From Anaerolineales bacterium (lineage in GTDB: Bacteria; Chloroflexota; Anaerolineae; Anaerolineales; DRMV01): a stretch of 64,000 nucleotides of DNA. The translations under genes and the position numbers were made by a program. How positions within the stretch are numbered: position 1 is the first letter of the stretch; each line of letters starts with the position of its first letter. Positions 1 to 54,145 of this stretch are shown here, piece after piece. The notes under the pieces are model-generated. The model did not search any database. It had not been told where the DNA came from and was given only the letters and a program-made list of their open reading frames with translations. The DNA is taken from the NCBI GenBank assembly GCA_027023425.1, contig JALVVL010000007.1, positions 89,205 through 153,204 on the forward strand. The letters run 5' to 3'.

Positions 1-71
1 AAGTTCGTGAGCCGTTGCGTCGTGAAGTCGTTGCGTCGGGCGTTGTCGGGTGGTTCTCCCCCAAATTTGGG

Positions 72-467
72 AAAAACACAGAAGACACAGAATCGCCAAG
101 AAAAAAATTTTTCTGTGTTTTCTGTGTTTTCTGTGATTTTTCTTCAATCGGTGCAAATCTGTGTCAATCGGTGGATAGGGACGCCAAGGGTGCCAAGGAC
201 GCAAAGGCCGCCAAAGATAAAATCCACAGATTACACAGATTAGCACAGATTTTTTTCTGCGGAATCTGTGAAATCTGCGGTTTCTTTTCTTCAATCAGTG
301 CAAATCTGTGTCAATCGGTGGATAGGGACGCCAAGGGCGCCAAGGACACGAAGGACGCCAAGAAAGTAACGCAGAGACGCAGAGAACCGCAAAGGACACC
401 AAGAAAAAATTTCTGTGTTCTCTCTAAATTTCTGTGTCCTCTGTGGTTTTCTTTTTCAATCGGTGGA
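72..467. repeat. Family A modular 'word' mosaic repeat cluster, copy 1 (inverted relative to copy at 27893-28250)
   Basis: Contains S modules (141-176, 279-313, partial 452-467: TCTTCAATCGGTGCAAATCTGTGTCAATCGGTGGAT). Also an H hairpin module (219-273), ACGCCAAGG-type words (178-215, 315-362), ACGCAGAG words (366-385) and CACAGA/TCTGTG words (72-140, 408-447). The same modules recur at 6 other loci in this window. The ORFs here (7..243, 15..560, 311..493) are low-complexity artefacts. Confidence 0.85.
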
Positions 468-479
468 TGTTGTTCCCTG

Positions 480-746
480 TCAGATCTGTTCAAATCGGCT
501 CACTGGCAGCACAAAGATCGCGCCTTGCTTTACAAGCGGCTCGCTTGGTGTTTGCAGTGAGCCTTTGATGATTTCTATTACTTCGTCCACTTGCTCGTCT
601 TCAACGCCTATCAGCATGGTTGTTGAGCCGCGCCGCAAAAATCCGCCCGTGGAAGCAAGTTTGGTGACGCGGAAACCTTTTTCCAGCAGCGCACTCGCAA
701 CATCGGCGCTGTCGGCGGTTTGGACTACGGCAATTAGGAGTTTCAT
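480..746 (-). CDS. darA: PII-like cyclic-di-AMP receptor, DarA/YaaQ family (DUF970), short form
   Basis: The 88-aa ORF matches B. subtilis DarA as I recall it at both ends. N-terminus: MKLLIAVVQ..D...L...GFRVTKLASTGGFLR.G.TT.LIGVED..VDEV. C-terminus: GAIFVLPV..FEQI. The middle loop region is shorter. ATGA start/stop overlap with the upstream kinase gene. Confidence 0.75.
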   Translation of the reverse strand: MKLLIAVVQTADSADVASALLEKGFRVTKLASTGGFLRRGSTTMLIGVEDEQVDEVIEIIKGSLQTPSEPLVKQGAIFVLPVSRFEQI

Positions 747-3324: not shown

Positions 3325-5525
3325 GGTTTTGGAGTTTCCGTTGGCGGGGTGCCGGTGGGTTTGGGCGTGGCGGTAACGCCAATTTGGGCTTCCCACGGGT
3401 AAAGGGCTAACGGCCGCCCGTAGAAGTAATCTTCAATCACGCGGCGCACAATCGGCGCGGCCACGTCTGCTCCCTCGCCGCCGTATTCCACCACCACTGC
3501 AACCGCGATGTCGGGTTTGTCTTCTTTTTGGGCGTCGGTGAATGCAGTAAACCACGCGTGCGGCTTTCCGGCGGCGGTGCTGGCCGTGCCGGTTTTGCCG
3601 TAAATTGGTATGCCGAAGTTGATGAAGCGCCAATAGGCCGTGCCGCGCGGGCTTGAAACCACCAATCCCATCCCTTTGCGGATGATGGCGAGGTTTTCGG
3701 GGCTGACAGGCAGTTTGCCGCGCACTTCGGGTTTGAATTGATGGAACACCTTGCCCTCAGGCGAAACCACTTTTTCAATGATGTGAGGCACGTACAGCGT
3801 GCCGCCGTTGCCCACCGCGGCGATGTAATCGGCAACTTGGAGCGGCGTCACCAAGGTCGTGCCCTGCCCAATCGCCTGCTGGACGGCTTCGCGCTCGTTG
3901 GTCGGGTCGGTTATTTGCCCTGCCTCGTCGCCGATTTCTATGCCCGTGGGCGAGCCAAGCCCGAAGCCGCGCGCCATCTGCGCCACGGCGTTGTATTTGT
4001 AGTTTTTGTAGAGGTCAAGCCCGATGTGCCAAAAGTAGGGGTTGCACGAGCGCATCAGGCCTTCTGGCAGGTTGAGTTTGCCGCTTGGCGGGAAGCCGTG
4101 GTCGTAGGTCCAGTCGTAAAGCGTCAGGCCGGGGATTTCGGTGAATTTGTAGCCGCAGTTGTAAATTGTATCTTCTTTGAAGCGTCCACTTTCCAGCGCC
4201 GCGGCCATGGTGATGATTTTGAAGATTGAGCCGGGTGGATAGAGCCCGTGGGTGGCGCGGTTTAGGAGGGGTTTGGCGGGGTTGTTGAGTTGTTGCAAGA
4301 GCGCCGCGCTGTTGAAGTTTGCCGATTCAAAGGCGTTGGGGTCAAAGCCGGGGGAAGAAACCAGCGCGAGCACGCGGCCGGTGTCGCGTTCAAGCACCAC
4401 CACCGCGCCAACAAAGCCGCTGATGGCTTCTTGCGCCTGAATTTGCAGTTTGCGGTCAATGGTGGTGTAAATTGTGTCGGAAGGTTTGCTCTCGCCCGCG
4501 GCGAGTTGGCTCACGATGTTGCCTTTGGAATCCACCACGTAGAGCCTGCCGCCGTTTTTACCGGCGAGATATTTTTCTCCCCAGCGCTCCACGCCCATTC
4601 GCCCTATTTTTTGGTCAAGCCGGTAGCCTTTGCGGCGGTATTCGGCCACTTCGTCGGGCTGGAGGGCGCTGACATAGCCTACGCCGTGCGGAGAGACGCC
4701 TTCATGGTAGTAAAAACGTCCGCTGTAGCGGCGGAGCACAATGCCCGAATAGCCCGCAAGGGCTTTGTAGTATTTGTCGGCCACATCGGCGGAAACTTCG
4801 GCAATGGGTACATACCAGCCTGATGGGGCGTTGTTGATTTTTGCACGGATTGCCGAGGGGCTTAGCCCCGTGACGCGCCACAGCAGGTTCACCAAGTCAT
4901 CAACCTTGTCCTTGTCCAACTGCGCGGGGAAAAGCCCGATTGAGAGGGCTTGGGTTTGGGTGGCGATTACTTTGCCGTCTCGGTCTAAAATTTCGCCGCG
5001 GGCGGGCACTTGCAATTCCATAGCGAGTTTGTAGCCACCGTGCAGTTCGGGCAAAATTAGGGCTTCATCCCACTGGACGCGCCACGCTCCTTTCTCCAAA
5101 CTTAGGTTCATCACAGTATCGCGGGAAATGTCGCCCACGACTGCACTGTGCAGGGTTACGGAATAGGCAACCTGCGCGGTGTGCGGTTTGACCAGCGAAG
5201 ACTTGATGGCGTAATCCACACCTTGCAGGGCGGCGTTTTCGGCCACGTCTTCGTAGTATTCGGCAAATTTTTTCTCGCTGATGGCATCTTTGCTGACTGA
5301 GGTGAGCAAGCCGTACATGGTTGGGTAGTCGTTCTTTTGCCACGCCTGCAAGTAAGCCTCGGCCACTGCCTTTGGGTCGGGCACATGGGTGGTAATCACC
5401 TGTGGCGAGGGTAGTGATGGAGTCTTTGCGGGCGCGGTGGTGGAGGTGGGCGCGGGGTTGCATCCGCCCAGCCACGCGGCCAAGAAAATTATCAACAATA
5501 GGTTTTGCCAGCGAAAGCGGTGCAT
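3321..5525 (-). CDS. Class B penicillin-binding protein (transpeptidase) with NTF2/MecA_N-like N-terminal domain; lipoprotein signal
   Basis: SxxK (SIFK), SxN (SCN) and KTG(T) motifs in order. N-terminal AVAEAYLQAWQKNDY... resembles the NTF2-like domain of PBP2a-type proteins. Start set at MHRFRWQNLLLIIFLAAWLGGC (lipobox LGGC) with GGAG 5 nt upstream. Confidence 0.85.
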   Translation of the reverse strand: MHRFRWQNLLLIIFLAAWLGGCNPAPTSTTAPAKTPSLPSPQVITTHVPDPKAVAEAYLQAWQKNDYPTMYGLLTSVSKDAISEKKFAEYYEDVAENAALQGVDYAIKSSLVKPHTAQVAYSVTLHSAVVGDISRDTVMNLSLEKGAWRVQWDEALILPELHGGYKLAMELQVPARGEILDRDGKVIATQTQALSIGLFPAQLDKDKVDDLVNLLWRVTGLSPSAIRAKINNAPSGWYVPIAEVSADVADKYYKALAGYSGIVLRRYSGRFYYHEGVSPHGVGYVSALQPDEVAEYRRKGYRLDQKIGRMGVERWGEKYLAGKNGGRLYVVDSKGNIVSQLAAGESKPSDTIYTTIDRKLQIQAQEAISGFVGAVVVLERDTGRVLALVSSPGFDPNAFESANFNSAALLQQLNNPAKPLLNRATHGLYPPGSIFKIITMAAALESGRFKEDTIYNCGYKFTEIPGLTLYDWTYDHGFPPSGKLNLPEGLMRSCNPYFWHIGLDLYKNYKYNAVAQMARGFGLGSPTGIEIGDEAGQITDPTNEREAVQQAIGQGTTLVTPLQVADYIAAVGNGGTLYVPHIIEKVVSPEGKVFHQFKPEVRGKLPVSPENLAIIRKGMGLVVSSPRGTAYWRFINFGIPIYGKTGTASTAAGKPHAWFTAFTDAQKEDKPDIAVAVVVEYGGEGADVAAPIVRRVIEDYFYGRPLALYPWEAQIGVTATPKPTGTPPTETPKP

Positions 5526-6967: not shown

Positions 6968-7012
6968 GTGCTCCGGTGTCATGTGCTCCGGTGTCATGTG
7001 TTCCGGTGTCAG
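6968..7012. repeat. 15-nt tandem repeat (GTGCTCCGGTGTCAT x3) in the sufS-sufU spacer
   Basis: Units at 6968-6982, 6983-6997 and 6998-7012 (the third has 2 substitutions). The repeat ends in the AGGAGG Shine-Dalgarno of sufU. It resembles the reverse complement of the 15-mer repeat at 29518-29577. Confidence 0.9.
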
Positions 7013-21456: not shown

Positions 21457-21950
21457 ATGCCTGCTTCCTGTAGGGCGCGTGCCAGCAAATCGTCCACGCG
21501 GAGTTCGGTAGCCCATTTCCGCAGGTAATCCAGGTCCAGTTCGTCGCCGCGCACTTTCAACACACCGAGCACGTCGCGCCACTGGCGTTCGGAAACCTCG
21601 CCGCCCTGCCGCTACCTCTCCGGTTTGGAGAGGATGATGTCTTCGGGACTGGCAAATCTCGCACTGACCTCAGTTTCCAAAGTAAAGGATTGCCTTTGAG
21701 CACGTGCCAGTTGGGAACGCAGAAAAGGGCGCTGGCGGGGGATAAAAATGTCAACCTTGAACATGGTCTCGCGATGGATAGTTTCGGAGGCTTGAGGATA
21801 GCGAGCACGCAACCCTGCCAACGCCAACCTTCGGGCAGAGACATTCAATTGCGCCAGCATGTTCATCTTGTAGGTAGGGCTGGCATGCCGCCAGAGTTCA
21901 ATCTGCAGAGCCTCTACCTCGGGATCGGTATCCGAATACAGTCCGCTCAC
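21457..21950 (-). pseudogene. Remnant: 5' part of a small-protein gene fused in frame to the 3' half of a nucleotidyltransferase-family gene, with an in-frame TAG
   Basis: The N-terminal part (V)SGLYSDTDPEVEALQIELWRHASPTYKMNMLAQLNVSARRLALAGLRARYPQASE is paralogous to 22415-22657. It then switches to IHRETMFKVDIFIPRQRPF...ILSKPER*RQGGEVSERQWRDVLGVLKVRGDELDLDYLRKWA...GS*. The TAG is at 21612-21614 and the final TGA at 21457-21459. Confidence 0.7.
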
Positions 21951-22008
21951 GCCTTCGCTCCCAGTACAGGAAAACAATCTGCCAATTGCTCGAATTTACC
22001 CAACTCGT

Positions 22009-22142
22009 GTTACGCAGTTGAGCATCAACGCATCTGAGCGCCCTCACCTTACCCCCGCTGCGCGCCCCCTTTCCTCTCCCACTGGGAGAGGAAAGGGGGC
22101 TGAGCCGCCGCGAAGCAAGGCTCTGGGGGATAGGTGAGGGCG
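22009..22142. repeat. Family B nested palindromic element, extended copy, between the two broken cassettes
   Basis: GTTACGCAGTTGAGCATCAACGCATCTGAG extension, then the core CGCCCTCACCTTACCCCCG ... GCCCCCTTTCCTCTCCC-actg-GGAGAGGAAAGGGGGC ... GAGCC..GGCTC ... CTGGGGGATAGGTGAGGGCG. Confidence 0.85.
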
Positions 22143-22425
22143 ATAGCGGAAACAAGACCGGCTTTTGGTGCACGCAAAAAGTGTTCAGATAATTTTCTGG
22201 GAAAATGAACCGTCCCGCCTTGTCTGCATAAAACTCCGGCGAGAGCGCCGAAACCAGCGCAGGCACGTGCTCAAGTTTTATGTCAGCCACAATATCCACA
22301 TCTAAAGTGGAACGCATGACACCGTGTAACGAACTCGCTACCGACCCCCCCACAGCATAGGGGATTCCCAGTTGTTCAAATGCTTGCGTCACGCGCAAAG
22401 TTACTCGTGCAATTTCACCCAGCAT
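22143..22425 (-). pseudogene. 5' fragment of a nucleotidyltransferase-family gene (GS...DxD motif), truncated
   Basis: MLGEIARVTLRVTQAFEQLGIPYAVGGSVASSLHGVMRSTLDVDIVAD... is the minimal-NTase motif. Recognisable sequence stops near ...SPEFYADK (about nt 22215). The open frame then runs into unrelated sequence and the family B repeat. The missing 3' half resembles what is found in 21457-21800. Confidence 0.6.
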
Positions 22426-22657
22426 CACCGTACACCTTCTGCGCCAATTCCGCCCCCAGCGCCCTCTCTGCCCACAAGCGCCGGATTTGTGCGGGCGTAG
22501 CATCGGGGTGACGCCGCCTGATTTCGCTGAGCGCCAGTGCTTTTACCGTTGCGTTGAGGCTTTCCACCACAGCCATCTTTTTCCACGGCGGCATTTGCCG
22601 GATCAACTCAATTTGCAGGGCTTCCGCCTTGGGGGAAGTATCGGATATAGAGGGCAC
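22415..22657 (-). CDS. Small helical protein, putative antitoxin-like partner of the nucleotidyltransferase
   Basis: 80 aa with an 11-nt overlap on the NTase start, a TA-like arrangement. Paralogous to the N-terminal part of 21457-21950. No family name recognised. Confidence 0.5.
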   Translation of the reverse strand: MPSISDTSPKAEALQIELIRQMPPWKKMAVVESLNATVKALALSEIRRRHPDATPAQIRRLWAERALGAELAQKVYGDAG

Positions 22658-22685
22658 TCATCGTTACACTCCGCTGCCCCTACAT

Positions 22686-23126
22686 TTACTTCTCAATAAA
22701 TGGGTTCCGAATTTCAAGATAGCCCTCAACCATCAACCCGTGTTGCATGTCCTCAGAATACAACACACCTGCCCCGCTGCTCAAAGCAGCCGCTACGATG
22801 GTGCTGTCCCAAAAGGAAAGGGAATATCGCTGGCGTAATTGGGACGCCAATAACAAGACCGCTTTGGAGAGTTCTTTCACGGGGTACCGCTTATAAAACG
22901 CCTCAATCAGATTACTGATCTGCTCCTCAGTAAAGTTCGCCTGACGCAGCAAATTGACGCATACTTCATTGATAACTTGGGTGCTAACAATGGCGTCATT
23001 CTCCCGAATCAATTTTCGGGCAATCGCCGACTTTCTGGCGTTTTCTCCGTTGCTCTCATTCTCAAGGAAAGCATAAAGCCAGATGTTTGTGTCAACGAAA
23101 CATGCGTTGTCAGGCTCATTCGGCAT
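22686..23126 (-). CDS. vapC: PIN-domain ribonuclease toxin (VapC-like)
   Basis: 146 aa. N-terminal FVDTNIWLYAF carries the first PIN acidic residue and acidic residues follow later. Overlaps the upstream small gene by 11 nt. Confidence 0.75.
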   Translation of the reverse strand: MPNEPDNACFVDTNIWLYAFLENESNGENARKSAIARKLIRENDAIVSTQVINEVCVNLLRQANFTEEQISNLIEAFYKRYPVKELSKAVLLLASQLRQRYSLSFWDSTIVAAALSSGAGVLYSEDMQHGLMVEGYLEIRNPFIEK

Positions 23127-23328
23127 AAATTTCCTCCCTGCTCAACGGATGAAATCCTTTCACCTGCACAGGATGGCGGAGTAGGTGGTCTATGAAATCA
23201 CTTTCTCGCTTTGACTTCTCTTCAATCAGCACAATAACGCGCACCTGCCGGGCGATTTTGCCGCGGTACTGACGAGGAATTTCAATCTTGCCGTCTTTGA
23301 CTTTTGCCTGAAATTCTATTGTTTTCAT
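23116..23328 (-). CDS. Antitoxin (AbrB/SpoVT-like swapped-hairpin type), VapB-like
   Basis: MKTIEFQAKVKDGKIEIPRQYRGKI... resembles the looped-hinge-helix DNA-binding fold. Start moved to the ATG at 23328 with AGGAG upstream. Confidence 0.55.
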   Translation of the reverse strand: MKTIEFQAKVKDGKIEIPRQYRGKIARQVRVIVLIEEKSKRESDFIDHLLRHPVQVKGFHPLSREEIYAE

Positions 23329-23492
23329 TCCCGAACTCCTGCTGCACACGTTGCAGACAACGGGGAGGCCGCTTCTTGAATATGGAAAAGATCAGGGGAA
23401 TGGCCAACCTTGCGCTTCAGCGGCTTGCCCCGATGCAACGAATTTACGACACAACGACGCACGGGCCTTCAATCTGCGCCAATCTGCGGTTT

Positions 23493-26213
23493 TTATTCGC
23501 CCAACTTCTCCTCAACCCAACCTGCCACTGCGGCTAAGGCCTCATCCAGCCGCGCGGGGTCTTTGCCGCCGGCTTGGGCAAGGGTGGGCTTGCCGCCGCC
23601 GCCGCCGCCCACGAATTTAGCCACGAATTTCGCCAGTTCGCCCGCGTGCAGGCCCTTTTTCGTCAGCGGCTTGCCCACCGCGGCCACGATGAGGGGACGC
23701 CCGTCGCGCACGGTGGCGAGCACGGCCACGCCTTCGGGGTGCTGCTGGCGGAAGCGGTCGGCCAAGCGGCGCAGGGCGTCGGCATCGGCATCGGGCACGC
23801 GCACCGCCAGCACGGGCACGCCCGCCACGCGCGGCGGCTCGGCAATCTGCCGCTCCACCGCGGCCTCGGCCATGCGGCGGCGCAGCGCGCTGGCCTCTTT
23901 GCGGGCTTCGGCCAGTTCCGCTTGCAGGTGCGCCACCTTTCCGGGCACACCTTCGGGCGGCGATTTCAGCAGCGCGGCGGCTTCTTCCAGCGCATCCATG
24001 CGCCCGCGGGCAAAGCGGTAGGCCCCTCGCCCCGTCACGGCTTCAATGCGCCGCACGCCCGCCGCGGCGCTCCCCTCGCTCACGATGAAGAACGCGCCGA
24101 TGTCCGCAGTGCGGCTCAGGTGCGTGCCGCCGCACAGTTCGCGGGAAATCGGCTCCGCATCGCCAATGGTGATGGTGCGCACAATTTCGCCGTATTTCTC
24201 GCCAAAGAGCGCCATTGCGCCCTCGGCAATGGCTTCCTCGCGCTTTTTGAAAGCCACCTGCACCGGGTAATCGGCGGCGATCGCGTCGTTTACCCACTGC
24301 TCAATGCGGCGCAACTGCTCGCTGGTCAGGGCTTCGGGGTGGGTGAAGTCAAAGCGCAGGCGGTCGGGCGCGACCAACGAACCCGACTGCCGAGCGTGTT
24401 CGCCCAAAATCGCGTGCAGCGCGGCGTGCAGCAGGTGGGTCGCGGTGTGGTTGCGCATGATGTCCTTGCGGCGGGAGGCGTCCACCGCAGCCAGAGCCAC
24501 GTCGCCCACGCGTGGCGTGCCCTTCACCACCTCGCCGATGTGCACAATCATGCCCGCGGCGGGCTTGCGGGTGTCGGTCACCCGGATTTCCCAGCGCGGC
24601 TCGGCCACCGAAACGATGGTGCCGGTATCGGAAACCTGCCCGCCCGATTCCACATAGAAGCACGTTTCGGGCAGAATCACGCCCACGATGTCGCCCTCGG
24701 CCGCGCTTTCCACAGGCTGGTTGTCTTTCATCAGCGCGAGCACCTCGCCTTCCACTTCCAGCGCGCCGTAGGGGTCGTAGCGCACGCCTTCAGGCGGCAG
24801 TTTGCCCTCGGCCTGCAGGCGCTCGGCAAGGGCGCGGTAAGCGTCCACGTTGTCTTCCACCAGAGGCCCAAAGGCCTTGCCCTTGCCCGAAGCCACGCGG
24901 TGCGCCTCCATCGCCTTGTGGAAACCGGCTTCGTCCACGTCCATGCCGTGCTCGCGGGCGATGTCGCGGGTGATTTCCAGCGGCAGGCCGTAGGTGGCGT
25001 AGAGTTGGAAGGCATCTTCGCCGCCGATGATGCGCTTGCCCTCGGCTTGCAGGCGCGCCATCAGGTCTTCCAGATAAGCCGTGCCGGTTTCCACCGTGCG
25101 GGCGAAGCGAATTTCCTCGCGGGTGATGGTTTCCAAAATGGCGTCGCGGTGCTTGACGATTTCGGGGTAAACATGCCCGAAACGCTCAATGACGGTTTCG
25201 GCAACCTGCGCCATGAACGGCTCGGTGAAGCCGATTTTGGTGCCGAAGCGGGCGGCGCGGCGGATGATCATGCGGCAGACATAGTTGCGGCTCTCGTTGC
25301 CGGGCACCACGCCGTCGCCGATGAGGAAGGTGGCCGCGCGGGTGTGGTCGGCGACGACCCGATAGGCGACCAAGTGCTCCTGCCGCTGGGCGTCGGTGTG
25401 GCCTGCCAGGCGCTGGATGGTGTCCATGATAGGCGTGAACAGGTCGGTGTCGTAGGAATTATCCACGCCCTGCAAAATCATGGTGATGCGCTCCAGCCCC
25501 ATGCCGGTATCCACGCCGTGCTTGGGCAGGGGGGAACGGGAGCCGTCGGGCGCCTGATTGAACTGCATGAAGACTAAGTTCCAGATTTCCAAAAAGCGGT
25601 TGTCGGGGTTTTCGTCCAAGTGGTAGGCCAGTTCCTCGCCGTAAAGTTGGCCGCGTTCGGGGAAGAAATCATAGTGAATTTCGGAAGTGGGGCCGCAGGG
25701 GCCGACGTCGGCCATCTGCCAGAAATTGGTGGTGTCGCCCAGGCGGGCTACCCGCTCCGCGGGCACGCCCACTTCTTCCACCCAAATGCGGAAGGCTTCG
25801 TCGTCGGAATGATGCACGGTGAAGTACAGCCGCTCGGGGGGGAGGCCGTAAACTTTGGTGAGCAGTTCGTAAGCCCAGGTGATGGCCTCGCGCTTGAAAT
25901 AGTCGCCAAAGGAAAAGTTGCCCAGCATTTCAAAGAAAGTGTGGTGGCGGGGGCTGGGGCCGACGTTTTCCAGGTCGTTGTGCTTGCCGGAAACGCGCAT
26001 ACAGCGCTGGACGGTGGTGGCGCGGGTGTAAGGGCGCTTGTCCAGGCCGAGGAAAACGTCCTTGAACTGCACCATGCCGGCGTTGGTGAAGAGCAGGGTC
26101 TGGTCGCCGCCGGGCACGAGGGAAGAGGAGGGCACGATGGTGTGCCCCTTGGATTCAAAGAATTTGAGGAAGGTGTCGCGGATCTGGTCGCCGGTCATCT
26201 TTTTGTCGGGCAT
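23493..26213 (-). CDS. alaS: Alanine--tRNA ligase
   Basis: 906 aa, full-length AlaS architecture: class II core (F.SKGH..V.SSSL.P..D.TLLFTNAGM.QFK), editing-domain HTATHLLH...CGGTH, C-terminal DHHA1-like GGGGGKP..AQAGG. Confidence 0.97.
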   Translation of the reverse strand: MPDKKMTGDQIRDTFLKFFESKGHTIVPSSSLVPGGDQTLLFTNAGMVQFKDVFLGLDKRPYTRATTVQRCMRVSGKHNDLENVGPSPRHHTFFEMLGNFSFGDYFKREAITWAYELLTKVYGLPPERLYFTVHHSDDEAFRIWVEEVGVPAERVARLGDTTNFWQMADVGPCGPTSEIHYDFFPERGQLYGEELAYHLDENPDNRFLEIWNLVFMQFNQAPDGSRSPLPKHGVDTGMGLERITMILQGVDNSYDTDLFTPIMDTIQRLAGHTDAQRQEHLVAYRVVADHTRAATFLIGDGVVPGNESRNYVCRMIIRRAARFGTKIGFTEPFMAQVAETVIERFGHVYPEIVKHRDAILETITREEIRFARTVETGTAYLEDLMARLQAEGKRIIGGEDAFQLYATYGLPLEITRDIAREHGMDVDEAGFHKAMEAHRVASGKGKAFGPLVEDNVDAYRALAERLQAEGKLPPEGVRYDPYGALEVEGEVLALMKDNQPVESAAEGDIVGVILPETCFYVESGGQVSDTGTIVSVAEPRWEIRVTDTRKPAAGMIVHIGEVVKGTPRVGDVALAAVDASRRKDIMRNHTATHLLHAALHAILGEHARQSGSLVAPDRLRFDFTHPEALTSEQLRRIEQWVNDAIAADYPVQVAFKKREEAIAEGAMALFGEKYGEIVRTITIGDAEPISRELCGGTHLSRTADIGAFFIVSEGSAAAGVRRIEAVTGRGAYRFARGRMDALEEAAALLKSPPEGVPGKVAHLQAELAEARKEASALRRRMAEAAVERQIAEPPRVAGVPVLAVRVPDADADALRRLADRFRQQHPEGVAVLATVRDGRPLIVAAVGKPLTKKGLHAGELAKFVAKFVGGGGGGKPTLAQAGGKDPARLDEALAAVAGWVEEKLGE

Positions 26214-26247: not shown

Positions 26248-26679
26248 AGGGCGCAAAGGTTAACGCAGAGACGCAGAGGAAGCAGAGATGCAGAGAGCGC
26301 AAAGGAAAAGATTAGCGATTTAGGATTTGCGGTATTCTCTGAAATCGGCGAAAATCTGTGTCAATCGGTGGATGAAAACCACAGATTACGCAGATTAGCA
26401 CAGATTTTTTCTGCGGAATCTGTGAAATCTGCGGTTTGTTTTCTTCAATCGGTGTAAATCTGTGTCAATCGGTGGATAGTAACGCCAAGGACGCCAAGGA
26501 GTTAACGCCAAGGACGCCAAGAAACCAAAGGACGCCAAGGTTAACGCAGAGGCGCAGAGTAGGGGCGAGGCATCGCCTCGCCCAGAGACGCAGAGAGAAA
26601 ATTTCTGTGTTTTCTGTGGTGCTTCTGTGTCCTCTGTGTTTTTTCTTCAATCGGAGTAAATCTGTGTCAATCGGTGGAT
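26248..26679. repeat. Family A modular mosaic repeat cluster, copy 2 (alaS / ABC-ATPase divergent intergenic region)
   Basis: R words (26260-26310), S-like module (26341-26373), H hairpin (26375-26437), S (26442-26476), K words (26480-26540), R words flanking a GGGCGAGGC-atc-GCCTCGCCC hairpin (26543-26600), C words (26601-26640), S (26645-26679). Confidence 0.85.
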
Positions 26680-26784: not shown

Positions 26785-27885
26785 ATGGCGAGCGTGACTT
26801 ATAACCATGTGACCAAGCGCTTCGGCGATGTTGTCGCACTCAACGACTTTACCATCCATGTGAAAGACCAAGAGTTTTTGGTGTTCGTCGGCCCTTCGGG
26901 ATGCGGCAAGACCACTGCCCTGAGATGCCTTGCAGGTTTGGAAGAGGTCACCGAGGGGGAAATTCTCATCGGCGACCAAGTGGTCAATGATGTCCCCGCG
27001 AAAGACCGTGATATTGCGATGGTGTTCCAGTCTTACGCCCTTTACCCCCACATGACTGTGTTTGACAATATGGCCTTTGGGCTCAAACTCCGCAAAGTGC
27101 CCAAAGATGAAATAAAACGGCGCGTGCATGAGGCGGCCGAGATCTTGGGCATTGAAAACTTGCTTGACCGCAAGCCGCGCCAACTTTCGGGTGGTCAGCG
27201 CCAGCGCGTTGCTGTTGGTCGCGCCATTGTCCGCAATCCGAAAGTCTTTCTCTTTGATGAGCCGCTTTCAAACTTGGATGCTAAACTCCGTGTCCAAACG
27301 CGCACCGAGATTTCTAAACTCCACAAACGCCTGCAGACCACTTTCATCTATGTCACGCATGACCAAGTGGAAGCCATGACAATGGCAGACCGCATCGCGG
27401 TGATAAACCACGGTGTGCTTCAACAAATTGACACCCCGCAGGAACTTTACGACCATCCTGCCAATAAGTTTGTGGCGGGTTTTATTGGCTCTCCGGCTAT
27501 GAATTTCTTCCCCGCGACCCTTAAGGCTGCGGACGGCAAATTCTATGTGGATACGGGCGCCTTTCAGGTTGAAGTGCCGCCGGAGCGCAAAGAGGCCTAC
27601 AAAGGCTACCTCAACCGGCAGGTTATCTTGGGAGTGCGCCCTGAACACATCCACAATCCCCAGTTTGCGCCAGCGGGCATCTTTGCTCAGCCGGTGGAGG
27701 GCACGGTTGAGGTGACGGAGTTGATGGGCAGTGAAATCTATGTTTACATGCGCGCCGGCGAGCATTCGTTTGTGGCGCGCGTTGACCCGCGCTCCAAGTA
27801 CCGCATGGGCGAAAAAGGCCAAGTTGTGTTTGACATGAGCCAAATGCACTTGTTTGACCCCGAAACCGAACTTGCCATTCGGTAG
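26785..27885 (+). CDS. ABC transporter ATP-binding protein, MalK/UgpC/MsmX-like (sugar importer ATPase)
   Basis: Walker [10 protein letters not shown], signature [10 protein letters not shown], Walker [13 protein letters not shown], plus a C-terminal TOBE-like regulatory domain. Start set at MASVTYNHV... with AGGAG upstream. The upstream part of the ORF lies in repeat sequence. No permease or SBP is adjacent. Confidence 0.88.
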
Positions 27886-27892
27886 AATTTTG

Positions 27893-28250
27893 CCCACCGA
27901 TTGAAGAAGAAAACCACAGAGAACACAGAAATTTACAGAGAGCACAGAGAAAAATCTGTGCTAATCTGTGGTTCTCATCCACCGATTGACACAGATTTAC
28001 ACTGATTGAGTAAGAAAACCACAGAAGACACAGAAATTTACAGAGAACACAGAAATTTTTTCTTGGCGCCCTCTGCGCCTCTGCGTTACCGCCCTTCGTG
28101 TCCTTGGCGACCTTGGCGTTCTCATCCACCGATTGGATGGTTGAAACCGCAGATTTCACAGATTCCGCAGAAAGAATCTGTGCTAATCTGTGTAATCTGT
28201 GGTTTTTTCTCTGCGTCTCTGCTTTCTCTGCGTCTCTGCGGTTCCCCTTG
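27893..28250. repeat. Family A modular mosaic repeat cluster, copy 3 (forward orientation)
   Basis: Order partial S, C, half-H, S (27976-28010), C (28013-28055), R', K' (28060-28120), short S (28121-28140), H hairpin (28143-28206, followed by TTTTTT), R' (28207-28240). The ORFs 27623..28402 and 28006.. upstream of 28276 are artefacts. Confidence 0.85.
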
Positions 28251-28275
28251 GCATACTTTGTTGAAGGAGGCAAAA

Positions 28276-29517: not shown

Positions 29518-29577
29518 GCACTTGACCCATAAGCACCTGACACAGAAACACTTGACACAGAAACACTTGACACTTAA
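29518..29577. repeat. 15-nt tandem repeat (RCACTTGACACAGAA x4) in the apgM-polX spacer
   Basis: gcacttgacccataa gcacctgacacagaa acacttgacacagaa acacttgacacttaa. About 11/15 identical to the reverse complement of the sufS-sufU 15-mer. Confidence 0.9.
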
Positions 29578-31319: not shown

Positions 31320-32081
31320 TTACATCTGCACCCTGTAGCGCACGATTGCCACAATGGTGAAAAGGACCACCGTCGCCACTGCTGAAAGGATCACCGAGCG
31401 GTAAGGGCGGTGGTCGCGCAGTGCAAAATACACCGCGCCGTAGTCGTAAACCTTTCCCCCAATGTCGCTCCACAACGGGCCGCCGCCGACTGAGAACATC
31501 ATGCCACCGAGCAGTCCGCCGATGTGCCCCCACATATCAATGCCGCTTTGCAGGCTCCAAACCAAGTTCACCAAAATCCAGAACAAAGCCTGCGTGACGG
31601 TGCTGCGCGCCGCCTCGCCAAGGTAGGGCTGATTCATGTAAAAAATCACCAAATACGCGCCCAACAGGCCAAAAATGGCCGTGGAAGCGCCCAATGAGGG
31701 GGCTTTGGTGAACGCCAGCGACATGACGTTGCCGGTATAAGCGGCAATGAAGTACAGCAAAGCGAAGCGCCAGTGCCCTATCAACTTTTCCAGCGTTGGG
31801 CCGAGCACAAAAAGCCCCCACATGTTCAAGCCTATGTGCAAAATTCCCGCGTGCAGAAACACTGGCGTGATAAGCCGCCAATACTGATGATAGACCACAA
31901 TCAGGGTGTTTTGCTTTATCCCCCATACCGCAGGCCAATCGTAGCCGGTGATGAGTTCGGAAAGAAATTGGGCAATGAAAACCAAGGTCGTGAAGCCGGC
32001 GATGGCGTAAGTAACCCATGCTTCATTGCGCAATCGGTTGAAAATTGAGCGCCGTTTTGGGGAGTAGAAGGAGTAACTCAC
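31320..32081 (-). CDS. Rhomboid-family intramembrane serine protease
   Basis: Six or more TM helices. Motifs WRLITP.FLH....H...NM, catalytic GASTAIFGLLGA and downstream HIGGLLGG. Confidence 0.85.
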   Translation of the reverse strand: MSYSFYSPKRRSIFNRLRNEAWVTYAIAGFTTLVFIAQFLSELITGYDWPAVWGIKQNTLIVVYHQYWRLITPVFLHAGILHIGLNMWGLFVLGPTLEKLIGHWRFALLYFIAAYTGNVMSLAFTKAPSLGASTAIFGLLGAYLVIFYMNQPYLGEAARSTVTQALFWILVNLVWSLQSGIDMWGHIGGLLGGMMFSVGGGPLWSDIGGKVYDYGAVYFALRDHRPYRSVILSAVATVVLFTIVAIVRYRVQM

Positions 32082-32698
32082 AGCGTCACCTTCCGATGGG
32101 GAATGCGGTGGTGCTCGGCTTGGATGATGGCGATGATTGTGTCCACCGTTTCCTCAAGTTGGTCTTCGCGGTTGACAACTACATAGTCAAATTCGTTCAT
32201 GCGCTTGAGTTCTTGGCGGGCGGTGGCAATGCGAAGGCGCAAGCCCTCAGGAGCTTCGGTTTTGCGCTTTTTCAGGCGTTCAACCAGTTCTTCTTCGGTT
32301 TCGGTGGTGAGGAAAATGAGCACCGCCTCGGGGCAGATTTTGCGCACCGTGGCCGCGCCTTGCACGTCTATGCGCATAACTACGTCCTTGCCGCTGGCGA
32401 GCGCCTCGCGCACCTGTTGCTTGGGAATGCCCTTGTAGTCGTTGTAAACGATGGCATATTCCAGCAGTTCGCCTTCCTCAATCATGCGGGCAAATTCCTC
32501 GCGCGACACAAAAAAGTAATCCACGCCGTTGCGCTCGCCCGGACGCGGGGGACGGGTTGTCGCCGTTACGACGAAGTGAAATTCCAAGCGCCGCTCCTTC
32601 ATCCGCTGGATGACGGTATCCTTGCCCACGCCTGAGGGGCCCGAAATCACAATCAGAAGCGGCTGGGGTTTTGGGGGAGAGATGAATTGGGATTCCAT
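32078..32698 (-). CDS. gmk: Guanylate kinase
   Basis: P-loop ISGPSGVGKDT, TTR.PR.GE..G.DY.F. Start set at the ATG at 32698 (MESQF...). ATGA-type overlap with the rhomboid gene. Confidence 0.9.
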   Translation of the reverse strand: MESQFISPPKPQPLLIVISGPSGVGKDTVIQRMKERRLEFHFVVTATTRPPRPGERNGVDYFFVSREEFARMIEEGELLEYAIVYNDYKGIPKQQVREALASGKDVVMRIDVQGAATVRKICPEAVLIFLTTETEEELVERLKKRKTEAPEGLRLRIATARQELKRMNEFDYVVVNREDQLEETVDTIIAIIQAEHHRIPHRKVTL

Positions 32699-32755: not shown

Positions 32756-33093
32756 TAACGCCAAGGTCGCCAGGGGACAAACCACAGATTAGCACAGACT
32801 TTTTCTGTGAAATCCGCGAAATCTGCGGTTTCAACCATCCAATCGGTGCAAATCTGTGTCAATCGGTGGATAAGAACCACAGATTACACAGATTAGCACA
32901 GATTTTTTTCTGTGTTTTCTGTGGTGTTTCTGTGTCCTCTGTGGTTTTCTCCTTCAATCGGTGTAAATCTGTGTCAATCGGTGGATGAAACGAACCACAG
33001 ATTACACAGATTAGCACAGATTCTTTCTGCGGAATCTGTGAAATCTGCGGTTTCAACCATCCAATCGGTGTAAATCTGTGTCAATCGGTGGAT
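32756..33093. repeat. Family A modular mosaic repeat cluster, copy 4 (inverted orientation)
   Basis: K word, short H, S, half-H plus C', S, full H (32993-33053), S (33057-33093). The last S module overlaps the final codons and stop of the FemAB-family gene. Confidence 0.85.
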
Positions 33094-34211
33094 ATGCGGT
33101 TTTGGGCGGCCTTTCTGAGACGGTGGAAGCCCATCCGCCGCCAGAGGGCGAGCACGCGCGGCGCGGCTTGTGCGTAAAGCCAGTAGGCGGCGCGGTTTGC
33201 GGGGAAATCCCATGCGCCGATGGTGCGCACCACCTCCGCGCCAAAGCCGCGCTTGAACCGGTATACGCCCCACATGGGCGCGTCGGGCGAAAATTCATCG
33301 GGCGCGCCCCAAAAGTCGTAAATTTTGCATCCTAAAGCGCGGGCGCGGCGGATGGCTTCCCACTGGAGCAGGTAAGTCGGCATCAGGTTGCGGTGCTCGC
33401 CGGTGGACATGCCGTAAAAGTAGTAAGCCCGTTCTGCAAAGTGGAACATCACCAGCGCGGCGACAGGTTTTCCTTCCACCTCGGCGATGAAGAAATCGGC
33501 TAAGCCCGCGTCGGCGAGCCTTCCCCAAACGCGCAGGTAGTATTCGCGCGGGCGGATGATGAAGCCGTCGCGCGCGGCGGTAACGGCGTACATGCGGTAG
33601 AGCAGGTCGTAATCTGCAGGGCTACCCATCCGCACGCGCACGCCCTTGCGCGCTGCTAAACGGATGTTGTAGCGCGTTTTTTGCTTCATCCGCCGCAGGA
33701 TTTCGTCTTCGTCGGGGGTGAGGTCAAGCCAAAGGGTGTTGCGAAATTGGACTTGGGAGTTGGAAAAGCGCCAGCCGAGCGACTCCAGCGTTTCGCGGAG
33801 GGCTTTGCCGGTGGGGTTGGGGCGCTCATCTTCGGAATTTGGCTCGCCGTAGGCGAGCACCACGTCGGGGTCAATTTTGATTGAAACCGCGCCGCGCCGC
33901 CGCGCAAATTGCTCCAAATCTTCCAAAACGCGCAAGCGCAGCTCGGTGTCCGCCCAATTCAAAAGCGGGGCTTTGGGGGCGTAAAGCAGGCGCAAAAAGC
34001 CCACCTTTCGCTCCAGAACCAGCGCCAGCGCCGCGGTTTTGCCCGCTTGCTCCCAGCGGAGGTAGTGCGGCCTCCAGCCGTATTCGGCCTTTAGCGCCGC
34101 CCAGTGGGTTGTCTGGAGCAGGTGTGCCGCCGGTAGCGAGGCGGCCGCTTCATCCCAGTCTGCCGGTGGGGCGGGGGAGATGCTCAGGGTAATCTCGGAG
34201 CCGCTTGCCAT
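33081..34211 (-). CDS. FemAB-family peptidyltransferase (peptidoglycan interpeptide bridge formation type)
   Basis: HLLQT..WA..K...GW.P......, KTRYNIR.A.K.GV.V and the tandem acyl-CoA-NAT-like halves are typical of FemABX/lipid II aminoacyl transferases. The last codons (I)STD plus TGA lie in a repeat module. Confidence 0.75.
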   Translation of the reverse strand: MASGSEITLSISPAPPADWDEAAASLPAAHLLQTTHWAALKAEYGWRPHYLRWEQAGKTAALALVLERKVGFLRLLYAPKAPLLNWADTELRLRVLEDLEQFARRRGAVSIKIDPDVVLAYGEPNSEDERPNPTGKALRETLESLGWRFSNSQVQFRNTLWLDLTPDEDEILRRMKQKTRYNIRLAARKGVRVRMGSPADYDLLYRMYAVTAARDGFIIRPREYYLRVWGRLADAGLADFFIAEVEGKPVAALVMFHFAERAYYFYGMSTGEHRNLMPTYLLQWEAIRRARALGCKIYDFWGAPDEFSPDAPMWGVYRFKRGFGAEVVRTIGAWDFPANRAAYWLYAQAAPRVLALWRRMGFHRLRKAAQNRISTD

Positions 34212-43256: not shown

Positions 43257-43278
43257 GCCGACCAGCACGCTGAACCAA

Positions 43279-43313
43279 CAGGGCGAGAAGGTTTTTCTCG
43301 CCCTGTTTCTCAT
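43279..43313 (+). terminator. Rho-independent terminator of eno
   Basis: Perfect 11-bp stem CAGGGCGAGAA / TTCTCGCCCTG, loop GGTTT, followed by TTTCTCATT. Confidence 0.8.
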
Positions 43314-43324
43314 TAACAACATGG

Positions 43325-43384
43325 AAAACCGCAGATTTCGCAGATTACGCAGAAAATCCGTGAAATCTGCGTAATCTGTGGTTT
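43325..43384. repeat. Family A solitary H-type hairpin between eno and the HAD-like gene
   Basis: AAAACCGCAGATTTCGCAGATTACGCAGA...TGAAATCTGCGTAATCTGTGGTTT. An A-run lies 5' and a T-run 3', so terminator-like on both strands. Confidence 0.75.
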
Positions 43385-43389
43385 CTATC

Positions 43390-44565
43390 TCAATCCGTAT
43401 AATCCATGGATTTCCCCAACAGAATAGCCCCCAGTGCCTCGTCCGTGCTTGTAAAAACCCGCGCACCCACCTGTTCAAGGCTGCGCCGCTTGGCCGGATG
43501 CGTTGCGACGCCCAACAGCGCCGTCTGCACGGGCAGGCGGGCAGCGCGCAACAACTCCGCCGCGCCCAAAACCGAGCGCAAGCCTGTGCTTGTGTCCTCA
43601 ACGACCACCAAGTGCACGCCATCGGGAGGCAAAAGTTCGGGGCGCGGCTCCCCCTCAAGCGCCCAAAGCGCCGCCGATTGCATTGCCTCAGCGTAGCGAA
43701 AGCCCAACGCCGCAAACAGCGCGGCGAGCGCATGGAAAGCCGCGGGCTTCAGCAACCGCTCTCCATCCCCAAAGCCGCGGCGGGCAAACAAATTCAAATG
43801 CCCAAAGCCGATAACCGGCAGGCTTTCCAGCCCTGCCGCTGCAAGTGCCAATTCCGCCTCGGGGGAATAAGACAACTCGGGCGGCGCATCCGGCGGATGG
43901 GACGGCCGCGCCGTCAACACAGCCGCCCTGAACTGCCCTTCCGCCAAAGCGCGGCGCAAACGCTCCGCCGTAGGCGCGCTCAGCAGGGGCTTGTCGTGTT
44001 CTTTCAGCAGCGAAGGGCTTTTCACCTCGGCGGGCAAGCCGTAAGTTTTGGCAAAGAGTTCACTGCCTAAAGCCAATTGTTGGAACAGGCGCGTTGTGGG
44101 CGAATTGAGCGAGCGCGTTTCGGCGAGCAAAGCCCGTGCCAATGGGCTTTGCCCCAAAGCGGGGAAGGCGGCGGACGGCGTGGATTGCAAGCGCCATGCG
44201 ACCTCGGCGGGAGCAACGCCGCGCTGCAGATGGGGCGCCAACAGCCGCGGCACGGCGGCAAAATCGGGTAGCGGCGCATTCCCCCACACTGGTGGAGGAG
44301 CGCCGCGCGGCTCCAACACCTCCGGCGGGGGCACACGCCCGTGCGCCTCCGCCCAAGCGTTCAGCGCCGCGGCTAAAGTCAGCGGCACCATATCCCATTC
44401 GCTGGTGATGCCCGCCGCCTCAAAGTGTTCCGGCAAATCCGGCGGGACGGCGAGCGCCCATCCCCAGCGGGCAAAGGTGCGCTTCAGCGAGGCGCTGACA
44501 GCGGCGCGGTAGCCGCGCGGCTCCACCAGCACGCCGTCAAGGTCAAACAACAGCACGGTCTTCAT
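43390..44565 (-). CDS. HAD-superfamily hydrolase-like protein (large, 391 aa), function unknown
   Basis: HAD motif I at the N-terminus (LLFDLDGVLVEP). The C-terminal part has a second DxxxG-like region (VVVEDTSTGL). ATGA overlap with hisE. Confidence 0.55.
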   Translation of the reverse strand: MKTVLLFDLDGVLVEPRGYRAAVSASLKRTFARWGWALAVPPDLPEHFEAAGITSEWDMVPLTLAAALNAWAEAHGRVPPPEVLEPRGAPPPVWGNAPLPDFAAVPRLLAPHLQRGVAPAEVAWRLQSTPSAAFPALGQSPLARALLAETRSLNSPTTRLFQQLALGSELFAKTYGLPAEVKSPSLLKEHDKPLLSAPTAERLRRALAEGQFRAAVLTARPSHPPDAPPELSYSPEAELALAAAGLESLPVIGFGHLNLFARRGFGDGERLLKPAAFHALAALFAALGFRYAEAMQSAALWALEGEPRPELLPPDGVHLVVVEDTSTGLRSVLGAAELLRAARLPVQTALLGVATHPAKRRSLEQVGARVFTSTDEALGAILLGKSMDYTD

Positions 44566-44903: not shown

Positions 44904-44966
44904 CTCACATGGAGAACACGGGGAGCACGGAGAAAATTTTCTGTGTTTCCCGTGTGCTTCTGTGAG
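44904..44966. repeat. Family A-related imperfect hairpin (CACGG/CACAG words) in the hisI-hisE spacer
   Basis: CTCACATGGAGAACACGGGGAGCACGGAGAAAA / TTTTCTGTGTTTCCCGTGTGCTTCTGTGAG. A T-poor arm followed by an A-poor arm, as in the C modules. Confidence 0.55.
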
Positions 44967-52602: not shown

Positions 52603-54096
52603 TCAATAGCGCCGGTAGAGGGCGTTAAATTCGCCGAGGCGGTCGGCTAAATTTTGGGGGAGGTCGGCTTTCATGCGCCAAGCCCAGTTCCCGCCGAGAC
52701 GACCGGGGTAATTCATGCGGGCTTCGTTGCCCAACGAAAGCACATCCTGAACGGGTGCAATCGCGAGCACTGCGGTTGAGCGCCAAGCCGCGCGGATCAA
52801 ATCCCACGCGATGTTTTCGCCGCTCACGGCAAGGTAGCGGCGGGCGTAATCGCGCTCTTCGGGCGTAGCGCGCTCGTTCCACCAACCCACAACCGTGTCG
52901 TTGTCGTGGGTGGTGGTGTAAACGGCAAAGTTGGGGTCGGTGTAATTGTGGGGCAAAAAGGGGTTGTCGGAGCCGCTTCCAAATGCAAAAACCAGCACCT
53001 TCATGCCGGGGAAGCCGAACTTGCGGCGCAGGGCTTCCACATCGGGCGTGATTACCCCCAAATCTTCGGCTATCAGCGGCGGGCTTTGGAGCGCATCGTT
53101 CACCGCCGAGAAGAAATCCTCCCCTGGGGCGGGAACCCAGCGGCCGTGCTCGGCAGTTTCTTCCTCTGCGGGCACTTCCCAGTAAGCCGCAAAGCCGCGG
53201 AAATGGTCAAGCCGCACCGCGTCCACCAACTCCAGCAAAAGGCGCAGGCGGCTGAGCCACCACGCGTAGCCGGTGCGGCGGTGCTCCTCCCAGCGGTAGA
53301 GGGGGTTGCCCCAGCGCTGGCCGGTGGGCGAGAAATAATCGGGCGGCACCCCGGCGACAACGCGCGGGTTGCCGTTTTCGTCTAAGTCAAACAGTTCGGG
53401 GTGCGCCCAAACATCGGCGCTGTCGTGGGCTACGAAAATCGGTGCATCGCCGATGAAGCGCACGGCGTGCTCGTGGGCGTGTTCACGCAGGTTGCGCCAT
53501 TGGCGGAAAAAGAGGAACTGGTGGAAGATGTGGCGCTCCACCGCGTCGGCGAGCGATGTGCGTGCTTTTTTCAGCGCCTTTTCGTCGCGGCGGCGGAGCG
53601 GCTCTTCCCATTGTGTCCACGGAGCGCCGCCGTGCGCCTCTTTGAGCGCCATGAACAGCGCAAAATCGTCCAGCCAAGCGCGATGGCGGGCGCGGAAGCC
53701 TTCCATTTCGGCGCGCAGGTCGGCGCGGGCGGCAAAGCGCTCGTAGGCGCGGTCAAGCAAGCCGAGTTTGAAAGGGATGACCGCGCCGTAGTCCACCTTC
53801 CCCGCAGGGAAAGTGGGGAGAGCGGCTAAATCGGCTACGGTGAGCAAGCCTTCGCTCAGCAAATCATCGGGGCTAATGAGGTATGGGTTCCCGGCGAAGG
53901 CGGAGAAGGTTTGGTAGGGCGAATCGCCGTAGCCGGTGGGGCCGAGTGGCAGAACTTGCCACCAGCGCACGCCAACCCTGCCGAGGGTGATGGCGAAACG
54001 GCGCGCCGCGGGGCCGAGGTCGCCTATTCCGTAGGGGCCGGGCAGGCTGGTGGGGTGCAAAAGCAAACCCGATGAGCGCTCAAAGCGGGCGGCCAA
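52603..54096 (-). CDS. malQ: 4-alpha-glucanotransferase (amylomaltase)
   Basis: RSSG.LLHPTSLPG..GIGDLG, DH.RG, GDAPIFVAHDSADVW, IAEDLG.IT, YT.THDN.T..GW: a complete GH77 pattern. Confidence 0.93.
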   Translation of the reverse strand: MAARFERSSGLLLHPTSLPGPYGIGDLGPAARRFAITLGRVGVRWWQVLPLGPTGYGDSPYQTFSAFAGNPYLISPDDLLSEGLLTVADLAALPTFPAGKVDYGAVIPFKLGLLDRAYERFAARADLRAEMEGFRARHRAWLDDFALFMALKEAHGGAPWTQWEEPLRRRDEKALKKARTSLADAVERHIFHQFLFFRQWRNLREHAHEHAVRFIGDAPIFVAHDSADVWAHPELFDLDENGNPRVVAGVPPDYFSPTGQRWGNPLYRWEEHRRTGYAWWLSRLRLLLELVDAVRLDHFRGFAAYWEVPAEEETAEHGRWVPAPGEDFFSAVNDALQSPPLIAEDLGVITPDVEALRRKFGFPGMKVLVFAFGSGSDNPFLPHNYTDPNFAVYTTTHDNDTVVGWWNERATPEERDYARRYLAVSGENIAWDLIRAAWRSTAVLAIAPVQDVLSLGNEARMNYPGRLGGNWAWRMKADLPQNLADRLGEFNALYRRY

Positions 54097-54145
54097 TTTA
54101 TTCCTCCGTTGGAGCGGGATTTTTTGAAAAACAGCAGCCGTTCAT

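Follow-up and report, generated by a model that had tools for sequence, protein, structure and literature searches.

Several intergenic gaps in a 64,000-nucleotide stretch of the genome of an Anaerolineales bacterium (contig JALVVL010000007.1, positions 89,205 to 153,204; hereafter the window) are occupied by arrays of a modular repeat family, in which five principal modules, termed S, H, C, R and K, are combined in recurrent order and in either orientation. The family appears to be undescribed, and appears to behave like a family of miniature inverted-repeat transposable elements (MITEs) that has decayed into mosaics resembling bacterial interspersed mosaic elements (BIMEs) or the BOX elements of Streptococcus pneumoniae. 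On balance, we lean towards reading the arrays as selfish, MITE-derived, non-coding mosaic repeats, specific to a lineage of thermophilic Anaerolineales, that are growing in place. The reading as MITE-like follows from the IS66-like ends of related elements in sister species and from the near-perfect 8-bp duplications beside four of seven of them.

A modular repeat family in intergenic gaps

The window is ordinary chromosome of 57.8% G+C, and its genes are housekeeping genes (alaS, an ABC ATPase gene, apgM, gmk, a FemAB-family gene, the enolase gene, malQ, recO, rsgA and others), with no transposase among them. The repeat modules exceed chance by a wide margin. The 22-mer core of S, ATCCACCGATTGACACAGATTT, is present in 13 exact copies (0 in 100 shuffles) and the half-site CACCGATTGA, at up to one mismatch, in 28 copies (3.4 expected), whereas the 28-mer right arm of H, the K double word and the R double word occur 8, 14 and 9 times against expectations of 0, 0.24 and 0, respectively. 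Tandem Repeats Finder reports word arrays with periods of 8–10 nt, as well as a 104-nt S+H unit that is repeated 3.3 times at 97% identity (54182–54525). A first-pass annotation of the window had proposed just such a family, and the proposal holds, with S, H, C, R and K confined to the gaps it named. The five modules exist as described, but more are present, namely a palindrome tagged with GTAG, an S-linked module at ∼26300–26350 that is common to the window and one related locus (L003), and a degenerate end of the terminal inverted repeat (TIR) type. Likewise, the arrays located at first are confirmed (the five large ones are numbered 1 to 5 along the window), but the first of them reaches the window edge, and word arrays at 1–60, 2327–2385, 6968–7011 and 29519–29573 had been missed.

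The grammar of the arrays was derived by tokenising the words of the window and of related loci (prefixed L), with S oriented as ATCCACCGATTGACACAGATTTnCACCGATTGA, the S(+) sense. S itself consists of three in-phase 10-mers of the form CACMGATTKA, and a single root, C-R-C-M-R-A, underlies all words, which fall into the types CACCGA, CACAGA, CGCAGA and CGCCAA. Three options follow S. The first is H, with two to three CGCAGATTy words, an A5 loop, three copies of AATCTGTG and a GGTTTT end; the second, the C/a hairpin, has three to four CACAGARnn words (C) followed by the same AATCTGTG arm as in H; and the third runs from C words through TTTT to CTCTGCG words (r) and CCTTGGCG words (k), that is, C then R then K. 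The order S-C-R-K-S-H that had been remarked at 27976–28206, and in inverse at 141–467, is reproduced by the tokenising.

All of the 53 arrays, distributed over 46 gaps in the window and the related loci, are outside called genes. They take up almost the whole of their gaps, in agreement with the early impression that they form the bulk of them, and start at a median of ∼30 nt past the upstream stop codon. Gaps with genes called on both sides comprise 19 tandem, 6 convergent and 3 divergent cases; S points the same way as the genes of tandem gaps in 12 cases and the opposite way in 5, an excess that is not significant (p = 0.14). Coding capacity is absent, as the annotation had held, the indels between copies not being multiples of three. 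Since one strand of the arrays is T-free, no stop codons are possible on it, and the long open reading frames (ORFs) that cross the arrays are rejected as artefacts of this composition. A CRISPR array, in which identical direct repeats would alternate with unique spacers of similar length, is likewise rejected, as the stretches that separate one S from the next are built of repeats themselves (H, C, r, k) and common to several loci, and so is an assembly artefact, as the arrays recur in independent assemblies and strains.

The family extends to other genomes. An exact scan for the family, using one genome per species, gave matches at a minimum of 29 loci in four assemblies among the matches listed, all of them hot-spring metagenome-assembled genomes (MAGs) labelled Anaerolineales; at least four hot-spring species of the order, known as MAGs, thus carry the family. 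A few tiny carrier contigs binned with an archaeon are probably misbinned, and in this archaeal MAG (JALVYU) the repeats were probably the cause of the misbinning. S is conserved to at least 93% at each core position over 70 copies from several species, and repeat copies are near-identical between species whose coding DNA is ∼77% identical, a value obtained from the only coding stretch of a carrier MAG that could be aligned with the window. A cross-species comparison of array-bearing gaps found that the genes of the window and of loci L001–L029 do not overlap to a usable extent. Many MAG contigs (L001–L029, L036) end inside arrays, as does a public scaffold of the same strain, which amounts to systematic assembly breakage. 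The scaffold in question (ENA JOHN19-1_SAMN10217875 scaffold_78) matches the window and breaks inside array 5.

The annotation could place the modules in no known family, and neither can we. A search of the whole window against Rfam at gathering thresholds returned nothing, and one of the 26.2–28.3 kb region at E ≤ 10 returned only spurious matches to microRNA precursors. BLAST of array 5 against plasmids and phages returned no match, nor did a scan of viral contigs for S, and full-text searches of the literature, by keyword (MITE, REP, Anaerolineae, Chloroflexi) and by module, TIR and palindrome sequence, did not turn up a description of the family. The Chloroflexi-1 RNA of Rfam, which also occurs in tandem in Chloroflexota, is rejected as an identity for the family, since its covariance model found no match at either threshold.

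Transposon-type ends and growth in place

Sister species, represented by MAGs JALUDX and JALVOR, have the same mosaics enclosed between 14-nt inverted ends, GTAACTGTTCAGCC...GGCTGAACAGTTAC, with subterminal word regions that mirror each other. Seven such elements are complete, non-coding and 188–485 bp in length, with an S-like motif near the terminal end. In four of the seven, the flanking 8-mers match each other at 7/8, 6/8, 7/8 and 6/8 positions, where the chance of a match of 6/8 or better is ∼0.004 per element. A target duplication of 8 bp is typical of IS66 (ISfinder). The element end, which starts with GTAAC, resembles the IS66-family inverted repeat, GTAACCGTCCGGGCA (PMC12888890), and the first 10 nt are identical in one copy. 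Within the window, a single degenerate left end is recognized at 54136–54151, as part of an end-like stretch (54136–54180) in array 5 that matches the TIR-plus-subterminal end of the sister-species elements; the other arrays are without ends. One TIR-bounded sister-species element (L009, 4803–5155) consists almost entirely of ∼25 CYTCTTGGCG/CCTTGGCG words, an extreme expansion of the k module.

Comparison of close relatives reveals how the arrays change. In a near-identical strain (GCA_027083855.1), whose flanking genes differ from those of the window by 0.8–3.1%, the array between alaS and the ABC gene is of different composition and shorter by 232 nt, and the array between the ABC gene and apgM differs by one 9-nt word and 13 substitutions. 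The latter gap forms a graded series: it measures 4–28 nt and holds only a ribosome-binding site in relatives at 84–88% apgM identity, 71 nt with an unrelated hairpin at 90%, 130 nt with exactly one degenerate S and one H at 96%, and 390–398 nt with three units in the window and GCA_027083855.1. The series therefore identifies the array as an insertion, since grown in place, between two genes whose adjacency is conserved. Among 67 apgM loci (598 kb), arrays occur only in the same-species copy, and one degenerate relative of the arrays is present in L040. Elsewhere in the window, the first half-site of the S copy at 33061–33093 provides the TGA stop codon (33081–33083) of the FemAB-family gene (33081–34211, minus strand); as the gene end, ...RISTD*, has its last codons and TGA inside S, the repeat has replaced the native 3′ end. 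Donation of a stop codon, strict intergenic location, presence in tandem, convergent and divergent gaps alike with no significant bias of orientation, array-internal assembly breaks and near-identity across species are all typical behaviour of mobile DNA.

These observations suggest the following course. The ancestor would have been a miniature inverted-repeat element of ∼190–485 bp with IS66-type GTAACTGTTCAGCC ends and 8-bp duplications, the form seen in the sister species, and its interior would have consisted of tandem 8–10-nt words on the C-R-C-M-R-A root. Transposition, for which the sister species provide the evidence and which is presumed for this genome, would have seeded the gaps. 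Nearly all ends would since have decayed here, so as to leave units headed by S (S+H, S+C/a and S+C-r-k), with the GTAG palindrome embedded in some of the third kind. Growth would then have come about through slippage by single words, as observed in the 9-nt indel between the two strains, and through duplication and exchange of blocks between S repeats, as observed in the 3.3-fold 104-nt unit and the 232-nt reshuffle, presumably by slipped-strand mispairing and by unequal or ectopic recombination. The first-pass annotation had leaned instead towards functional arrays (terminators or insulators, protein-binding arrays or structured RNAs); the sister-species ends and duplications, the insertions and the reshuffling favour a mobile origin first. 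It had also named an outcome that would undo its proposal, namely that the modules are fragments of a known insertion sequence or MITE, and this has come half true: the elements are MITE-like, but the MITE family itself appears undescribed.

The comparison with known systems places the arrays between several classes. With IS66-derived MITEs, the sister-species elements share their size, lack of coding capacity, 14-nt TIRs from GTAAC, scattered intergenic positions and, in four of seven, near-perfect 8-bp flanking duplications. They differ in that no autonomous partner was found in the window or the loci examined and in that the interior is a hypervariable mosaic of 8–10-nt words rather than a deleted insertion sequence, and the arrays of this genome differ further in being nearly without ends and in changing by slippage and recombination. 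BOX elements (boxA-boxB(n)-boxC) are likewise modular, with internal modules in varying number, as well as intergenic, stably folded and without a known transposase, but belong to another phylum and bear no sequence relationship, and the modules here are arrays of 8–10-nt words in either orientation. The short tandemly repeated repetitive (STRR) heptamer arrays of filamentous, heterocystous cyanobacteria offer no more than an analogy: they are tandem short words in the intergenic DNA of a filamentous bacterium, with several word families and no function known, whereas the words here are 8–10 rather than 7 nt long, reside in an Anaerolineales host, are organized with S and inverted words into hairpins, and have transposon-type ends in relatives.

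The likeness to BIMEs and to repetitive extragenic palindromic (REP) sequences that the first-pass annotation had noticed stands in part. The REPs of enterobacteria and pseudomonads, of which the GTAG class is mobilised by REP-associated tyrosine transposases (RAYTs), likewise build clustered, modular, intergenic hairpin mosaics with G·T pairs in their stems, and can sit in operons. REPs are imperfect palindromes of 20–40 nt that carry GTAG (or CGTC) as a terminal tag (PMC3733652). This description fits only the GTAG module embedded in R words at 26559–26583 (plus strand; GTAG-GGGCGAGGC-ATC-GCCTCGCCC, with a 9-bp stem), and not H, C, R, K or S. The R-REP-R composite has at least 15 further copies in related loci. 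The resemblance of the mosaics and this palindrome support the comparison, but the BIME arrangement is not reproduced: the REP module is single, of constant orientation relative to S, confined to a minority of arrays (it is absent from four of the five large ones in the window) and never forms alternating head-to-head and tail-to-tail pairs. The main hairpins, moreover, are 26-pair AU-rich stems of 9-nt words without GTAG, and no association with a RAYT was found in the window or the loci examined. Stand-alone perfect palindromes, GTAGGGGCG...CGCCCCTAC, with the same GGGGCGAGG stem as the REP module, lie outside mosaics just after gene ends at L016 4026–4055 and L022 1238–1270, and may belong to a separate GTAG REP family of these genomes.

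One candidate partner was considered. In L002, a 310-aa ORF (4354–5286, minus strand) with a match to Y1_Tnp (E = 1.7e-8) abuts a solo element end. It is rejected as a RAYT or transposase partner, as its HUH and Tyr motifs are degenerate and its host synteny is conserved in three genomes (AI-2E transporter, 60-aa ORF, then the Y1_Tnp-domain gene); it is a host gene whose stop codon merely falls in the element end. Homologues (L106 4001–5611, L107 4001–5449) delineate an Anaerolineales protein with a Roadblock-like region, a proline-rich linker and a Y1_Tnp (IS200-like) fold, to which the longer homologues add a receiver-like N-terminus. With an HUH motif that reads (H/N)-Y-L-Q and the catalytic Tyr replaced by Phe, it looks, from its sequence, like a domesticated, catalytically dead transposase domain.

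Several observations weigh against the MITE-derived reading. Three of the seven complete sister-species elements lack a target duplication, and the putative assignment to IS66 draws on an end similarity of 10–14 nt together with the customary duplication length. A single degenerate terminal end was found in ∼85 kb of this genome, so that current spread by transposition would here be conjectural, and no cognate transposase was detected in the window or in the related loci examined. Furthermore, S and the right arm of H vary far less, both within and between species, than would be expected under neutral decay, which implies an unexplained constraint. Finally, H is consistently asymmetric between strands: in 16 copies drawn from several species, pairing amounts to 97.3% of cells in the S(+) sense versus 89.9% in the other, with one invariant G·U pair that reads A·C on the opposite strand, a pattern compatible with selection on an RNA or single-stranded DNA form. 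Pure neutrality leaves both the uniformity and the asymmetry unexplained, and this keeps an RNA-based and a protein-binding alternative alive.

The family adds unusually structured interspersed repeats to Chloroflexota, a phylum in which mobile and repetitive DNA is almost uncharacterised. A single gap with zero, one and three units in graded relatives may show a bounded MITE decaying into BIME- or STRR-like mosaics, and mosaics that have lost their ends and keep growing may explain the origin of enigmatic intergenic word arrays. In practical terms, the arrays break metagenome assemblies, create spurious long ORFs and alter gene ends, as in the donated stop codon, and they could serve as strain-typing markers.

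Hairpins, S elements and possible functions

H is a 26-pair hairpin with a predicted free energy of −30 to −35 kcal/mol in the S(+) sense (z −7.8 to −8.8) and of approximately −29 kcal/mol in the opposite sense. The C-r block behaves in the reverse manner, being unstructured in the S(+) sense (z −1.0) and forming, in the S(−) sense, a strong R/c hairpin (z −4.6) whose energy is −40 kcal/mol, lowered to −58 kcal/mol where the REP module is included. Both hairpins are framed by AAAACC...GGTTTT. As H folds best in the S(+) sense and R/c only in the S(−) sense, transcription from either side meets a U-tailed hairpin. As the words alternate with their complements, we infer that any transcript or single strand through an array would form long hairpins, and the arrays are likely to have secondary effects on the stability or 3′ ends of mRNAs, yet these would not be why the arrays exist.

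Folding of this kind could instead be the purpose of the arrays, as host-selected RNA hairpin cassettes that act as two-faced terminators or insulators, or as barriers to 3′ exonucleases, a reading that we consider unlikely. By analogy with REPs and BIMEs in enterobacterial operons, H with its U-rich tail would serve the S(+) sense, and the R/c hairpin followed by UUUUUCUUC would serve the S(−) sense. The stability of H and the one-sided stability of R/c would be expected of such cassettes, as would their common frame, the G·U pair of H that is constant across species in one sense and an A·C mismatch in the other, the array start shortly after the upstream stop codon and the weak excess of co-orientation (12 versus 5). 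However, a simple consensus scan of the arrays called neither promoters nor terminators, so that these hairpins went uncalled, and genuine GC-rich terminators adjoin some arrays, which are thus not needed as terminators at those sites. The placement of the arrays is equally at odds with termination: array 3 puts H and a U6 tract immediately before apgM, between genes that are close neighbours in relatives, array 2 is upstream of both alaS and the ABC gene, and array 5 is antisense to both neighbours. Close relatives, in addition, lack the arrays. With the scan negative and arrays also upstream of and antisense to genes, H is rejected as a canonical intrinsic terminator, which would be a short GC-rich stem with a U-run straight behind it, in sense at the 3′ end of a gene. 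Compensatory change in the stem does not speak for the cassettes either, as no measure of covariation in H exceeds shuffled controls in the 16 copies. At the R/Y positions of the words, G·T pairs dominate (39–43 of 59) and A·C pairs are not below chance. The absence of both an Rfam match and covariation in H leaves no sign of a curated or selected RNA.

The uniformity of S calls for a different explanation than folding, as S cannot fold on itself and RNA or hairpin structure cannot account for its conservation. The arrays might be binding sites for a sequence-specific or nucleoid-associated protein, with S the primary site, in the manner of IHF-binding BIME/RIP elements or of the subterminal transposase sites in larger transposons, a possibility that we regard as quite unlikely. 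Such binding would suit the status of S as the most uniform module (13 of 13 copies exact in the window), its 10-bp period that would place the repeats on one helix face, the CRCMRA root and 8–10-nt period common to all words and the S-like motif near the terminal end of sister-species elements. There is, however, no protein candidate; the right arm of H is nearly as uniform as S, which weakens the case for S as special; and the two near-identical strains disagree at 3 of the 33 positions of one S copy, so that individual copies are not strongly protected.

S also contains a perfect TTGACA, which raises the prospect that the tandem S+H units are small-RNA genes with S as promoter and H as terminator, comparable to the NsiR1 tandem arrays of Anabaena. 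The 3.3-fold S+H tandem at 97% identity and the U-rich end of H would accord with such genes, but no unit class has a −10-like hexamer 16–18 nt past the TTGACA, the start would fall in or after the second half-site and yield variable products, and Rfam offers no match. The lack of a −10 element makes the small-RNA reading weak, indeed very improbable, and S is rejected as a sigma-70 promoter.

A wider functional scheme can be drawn from the same features. It is improbable, in our estimate, that the word mosaic is a functional system in which a dedicated nucleic acid-binding protein reads S and the CRCMRA words; candidate readers, and no more than candidates, would be a nucleoid protein or the dead Y1-transposase-fold protein in conserved synteny. 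In this scheme the arrays would be strand-specific two-faced transcription insulators, with H acting one way and R/c the other, and the host would tune the expression of neighbouring genes by lengthening or shortening them through word slippage. If S or the hairpins were indeed host-selected, the arrays would provide a simple model for strand-asymmetric regulatory hairpins in thermophiles. The selfish, MITE-derived reading remains the one that we prefer.

Arrays and word repeats along the window

Array 1 (1–479, minus strand) has its S(+) sense on the minus strand and extends past the window start; its continuation beyond the window edge is seen in L037. In S(+) order, it comprises a half-S (456–468), C, r, k, S (291–323), an H hairpin (221–283), k, S (144–176), a C/c hairpin (72–140) and GTCGTTGCG-type words (1–60), between a cyclic-di-AMP-receptor gene (480–746, minus strand) and aspS, which is outside the window. 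Array 2 (26248–26679, minus strand) occupies the divergent gap between alaS (23493–26213, minus strand) and the ABC ATPase gene (∼26786–27885, plus strand). It holds S copies at 26647–26679 and 26445–26477, a variant S at 26341–26373 and H at 26376–26437, together with K words (26482–26540), the R-REP-R block (26541–26597), c words (26602–26642) and R words (26263–26301). Array 3 (27893–28254, plus strand) fills the gap from the stop of the ABC ATPase gene (27885) to the ribosome-binding site and start of apgM (28276), and reads half-S, C/a hairpin, S (27977–28009), C, r, k, a short S (28121–28136), H (28144–28205) and r words.

Array 4 (32756–33093, minus strand) is made up of S-H, S-C/a, S with a short H, and k words, with S at 33061–33093, 32954–32986 and 32839–32871 and H at 32992–33053; gmk (32078–32698) is downstream. 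Array 5 (54136–54722, plus strand) lies between malQ (52603–54096, minus strand) and an acyltransferase gene (54735–56615, minus strand). Its degenerate left terminal end is followed by the tandem units of 54182–54525, with S at 54183, 54287, 54392 and 54496 and H at 54223–54284, 54327–54389 and 54432–54493, and then by C, r, k and r words (54532–54722).

A solitary H-type hairpin without S (43325–43384, plus strand) comes directly after the canonical GC-rich terminator of the enolase gene (∼43275–43305). It adjoins a 391-aa ORF (43390–44565, minus strand) that has good coding statistics and no Pfam match. Two loci that had been listed as degenerate relatives do contain related words, but each is a single hairpin and only loosely a member of the family: 44904–44966 is built from CACGGRGA / TCTGTG words, and 59901–59939 is a short hairpin of CCGCAGA words in a convergent gap.

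Among the arrays missed at first, 2327–2385 consists of 7.4 copies of AACGACCC and fills the gap between rsgA and a histidine-kinase gene; words of the same GGGTCGTT type also border arrays in L003, L037 and at window 1–60. A 15-nt word, CACTTGACACAGAAA, is repeated 3.7 times at 29519–29573 and holds the S-core-like motif TTGACACAGA, and 2.9 copies of GTGCTCCGGTGTCAT stand directly upstream of a start codon at 6968–7011. The genome thus appears generally prone to make or keep tandem words of 8–15 nt in intergenic gaps. Apart from the arrays, the stretch at ∼21900–23330, when compared with L031, shows an insertion/deletion polymorphism between near-identical strains: the window strain has four small genes here, including one for a PIN-domain toxin (22686–23126) and one for its small partner, and GCA_027083855.1 is without them.

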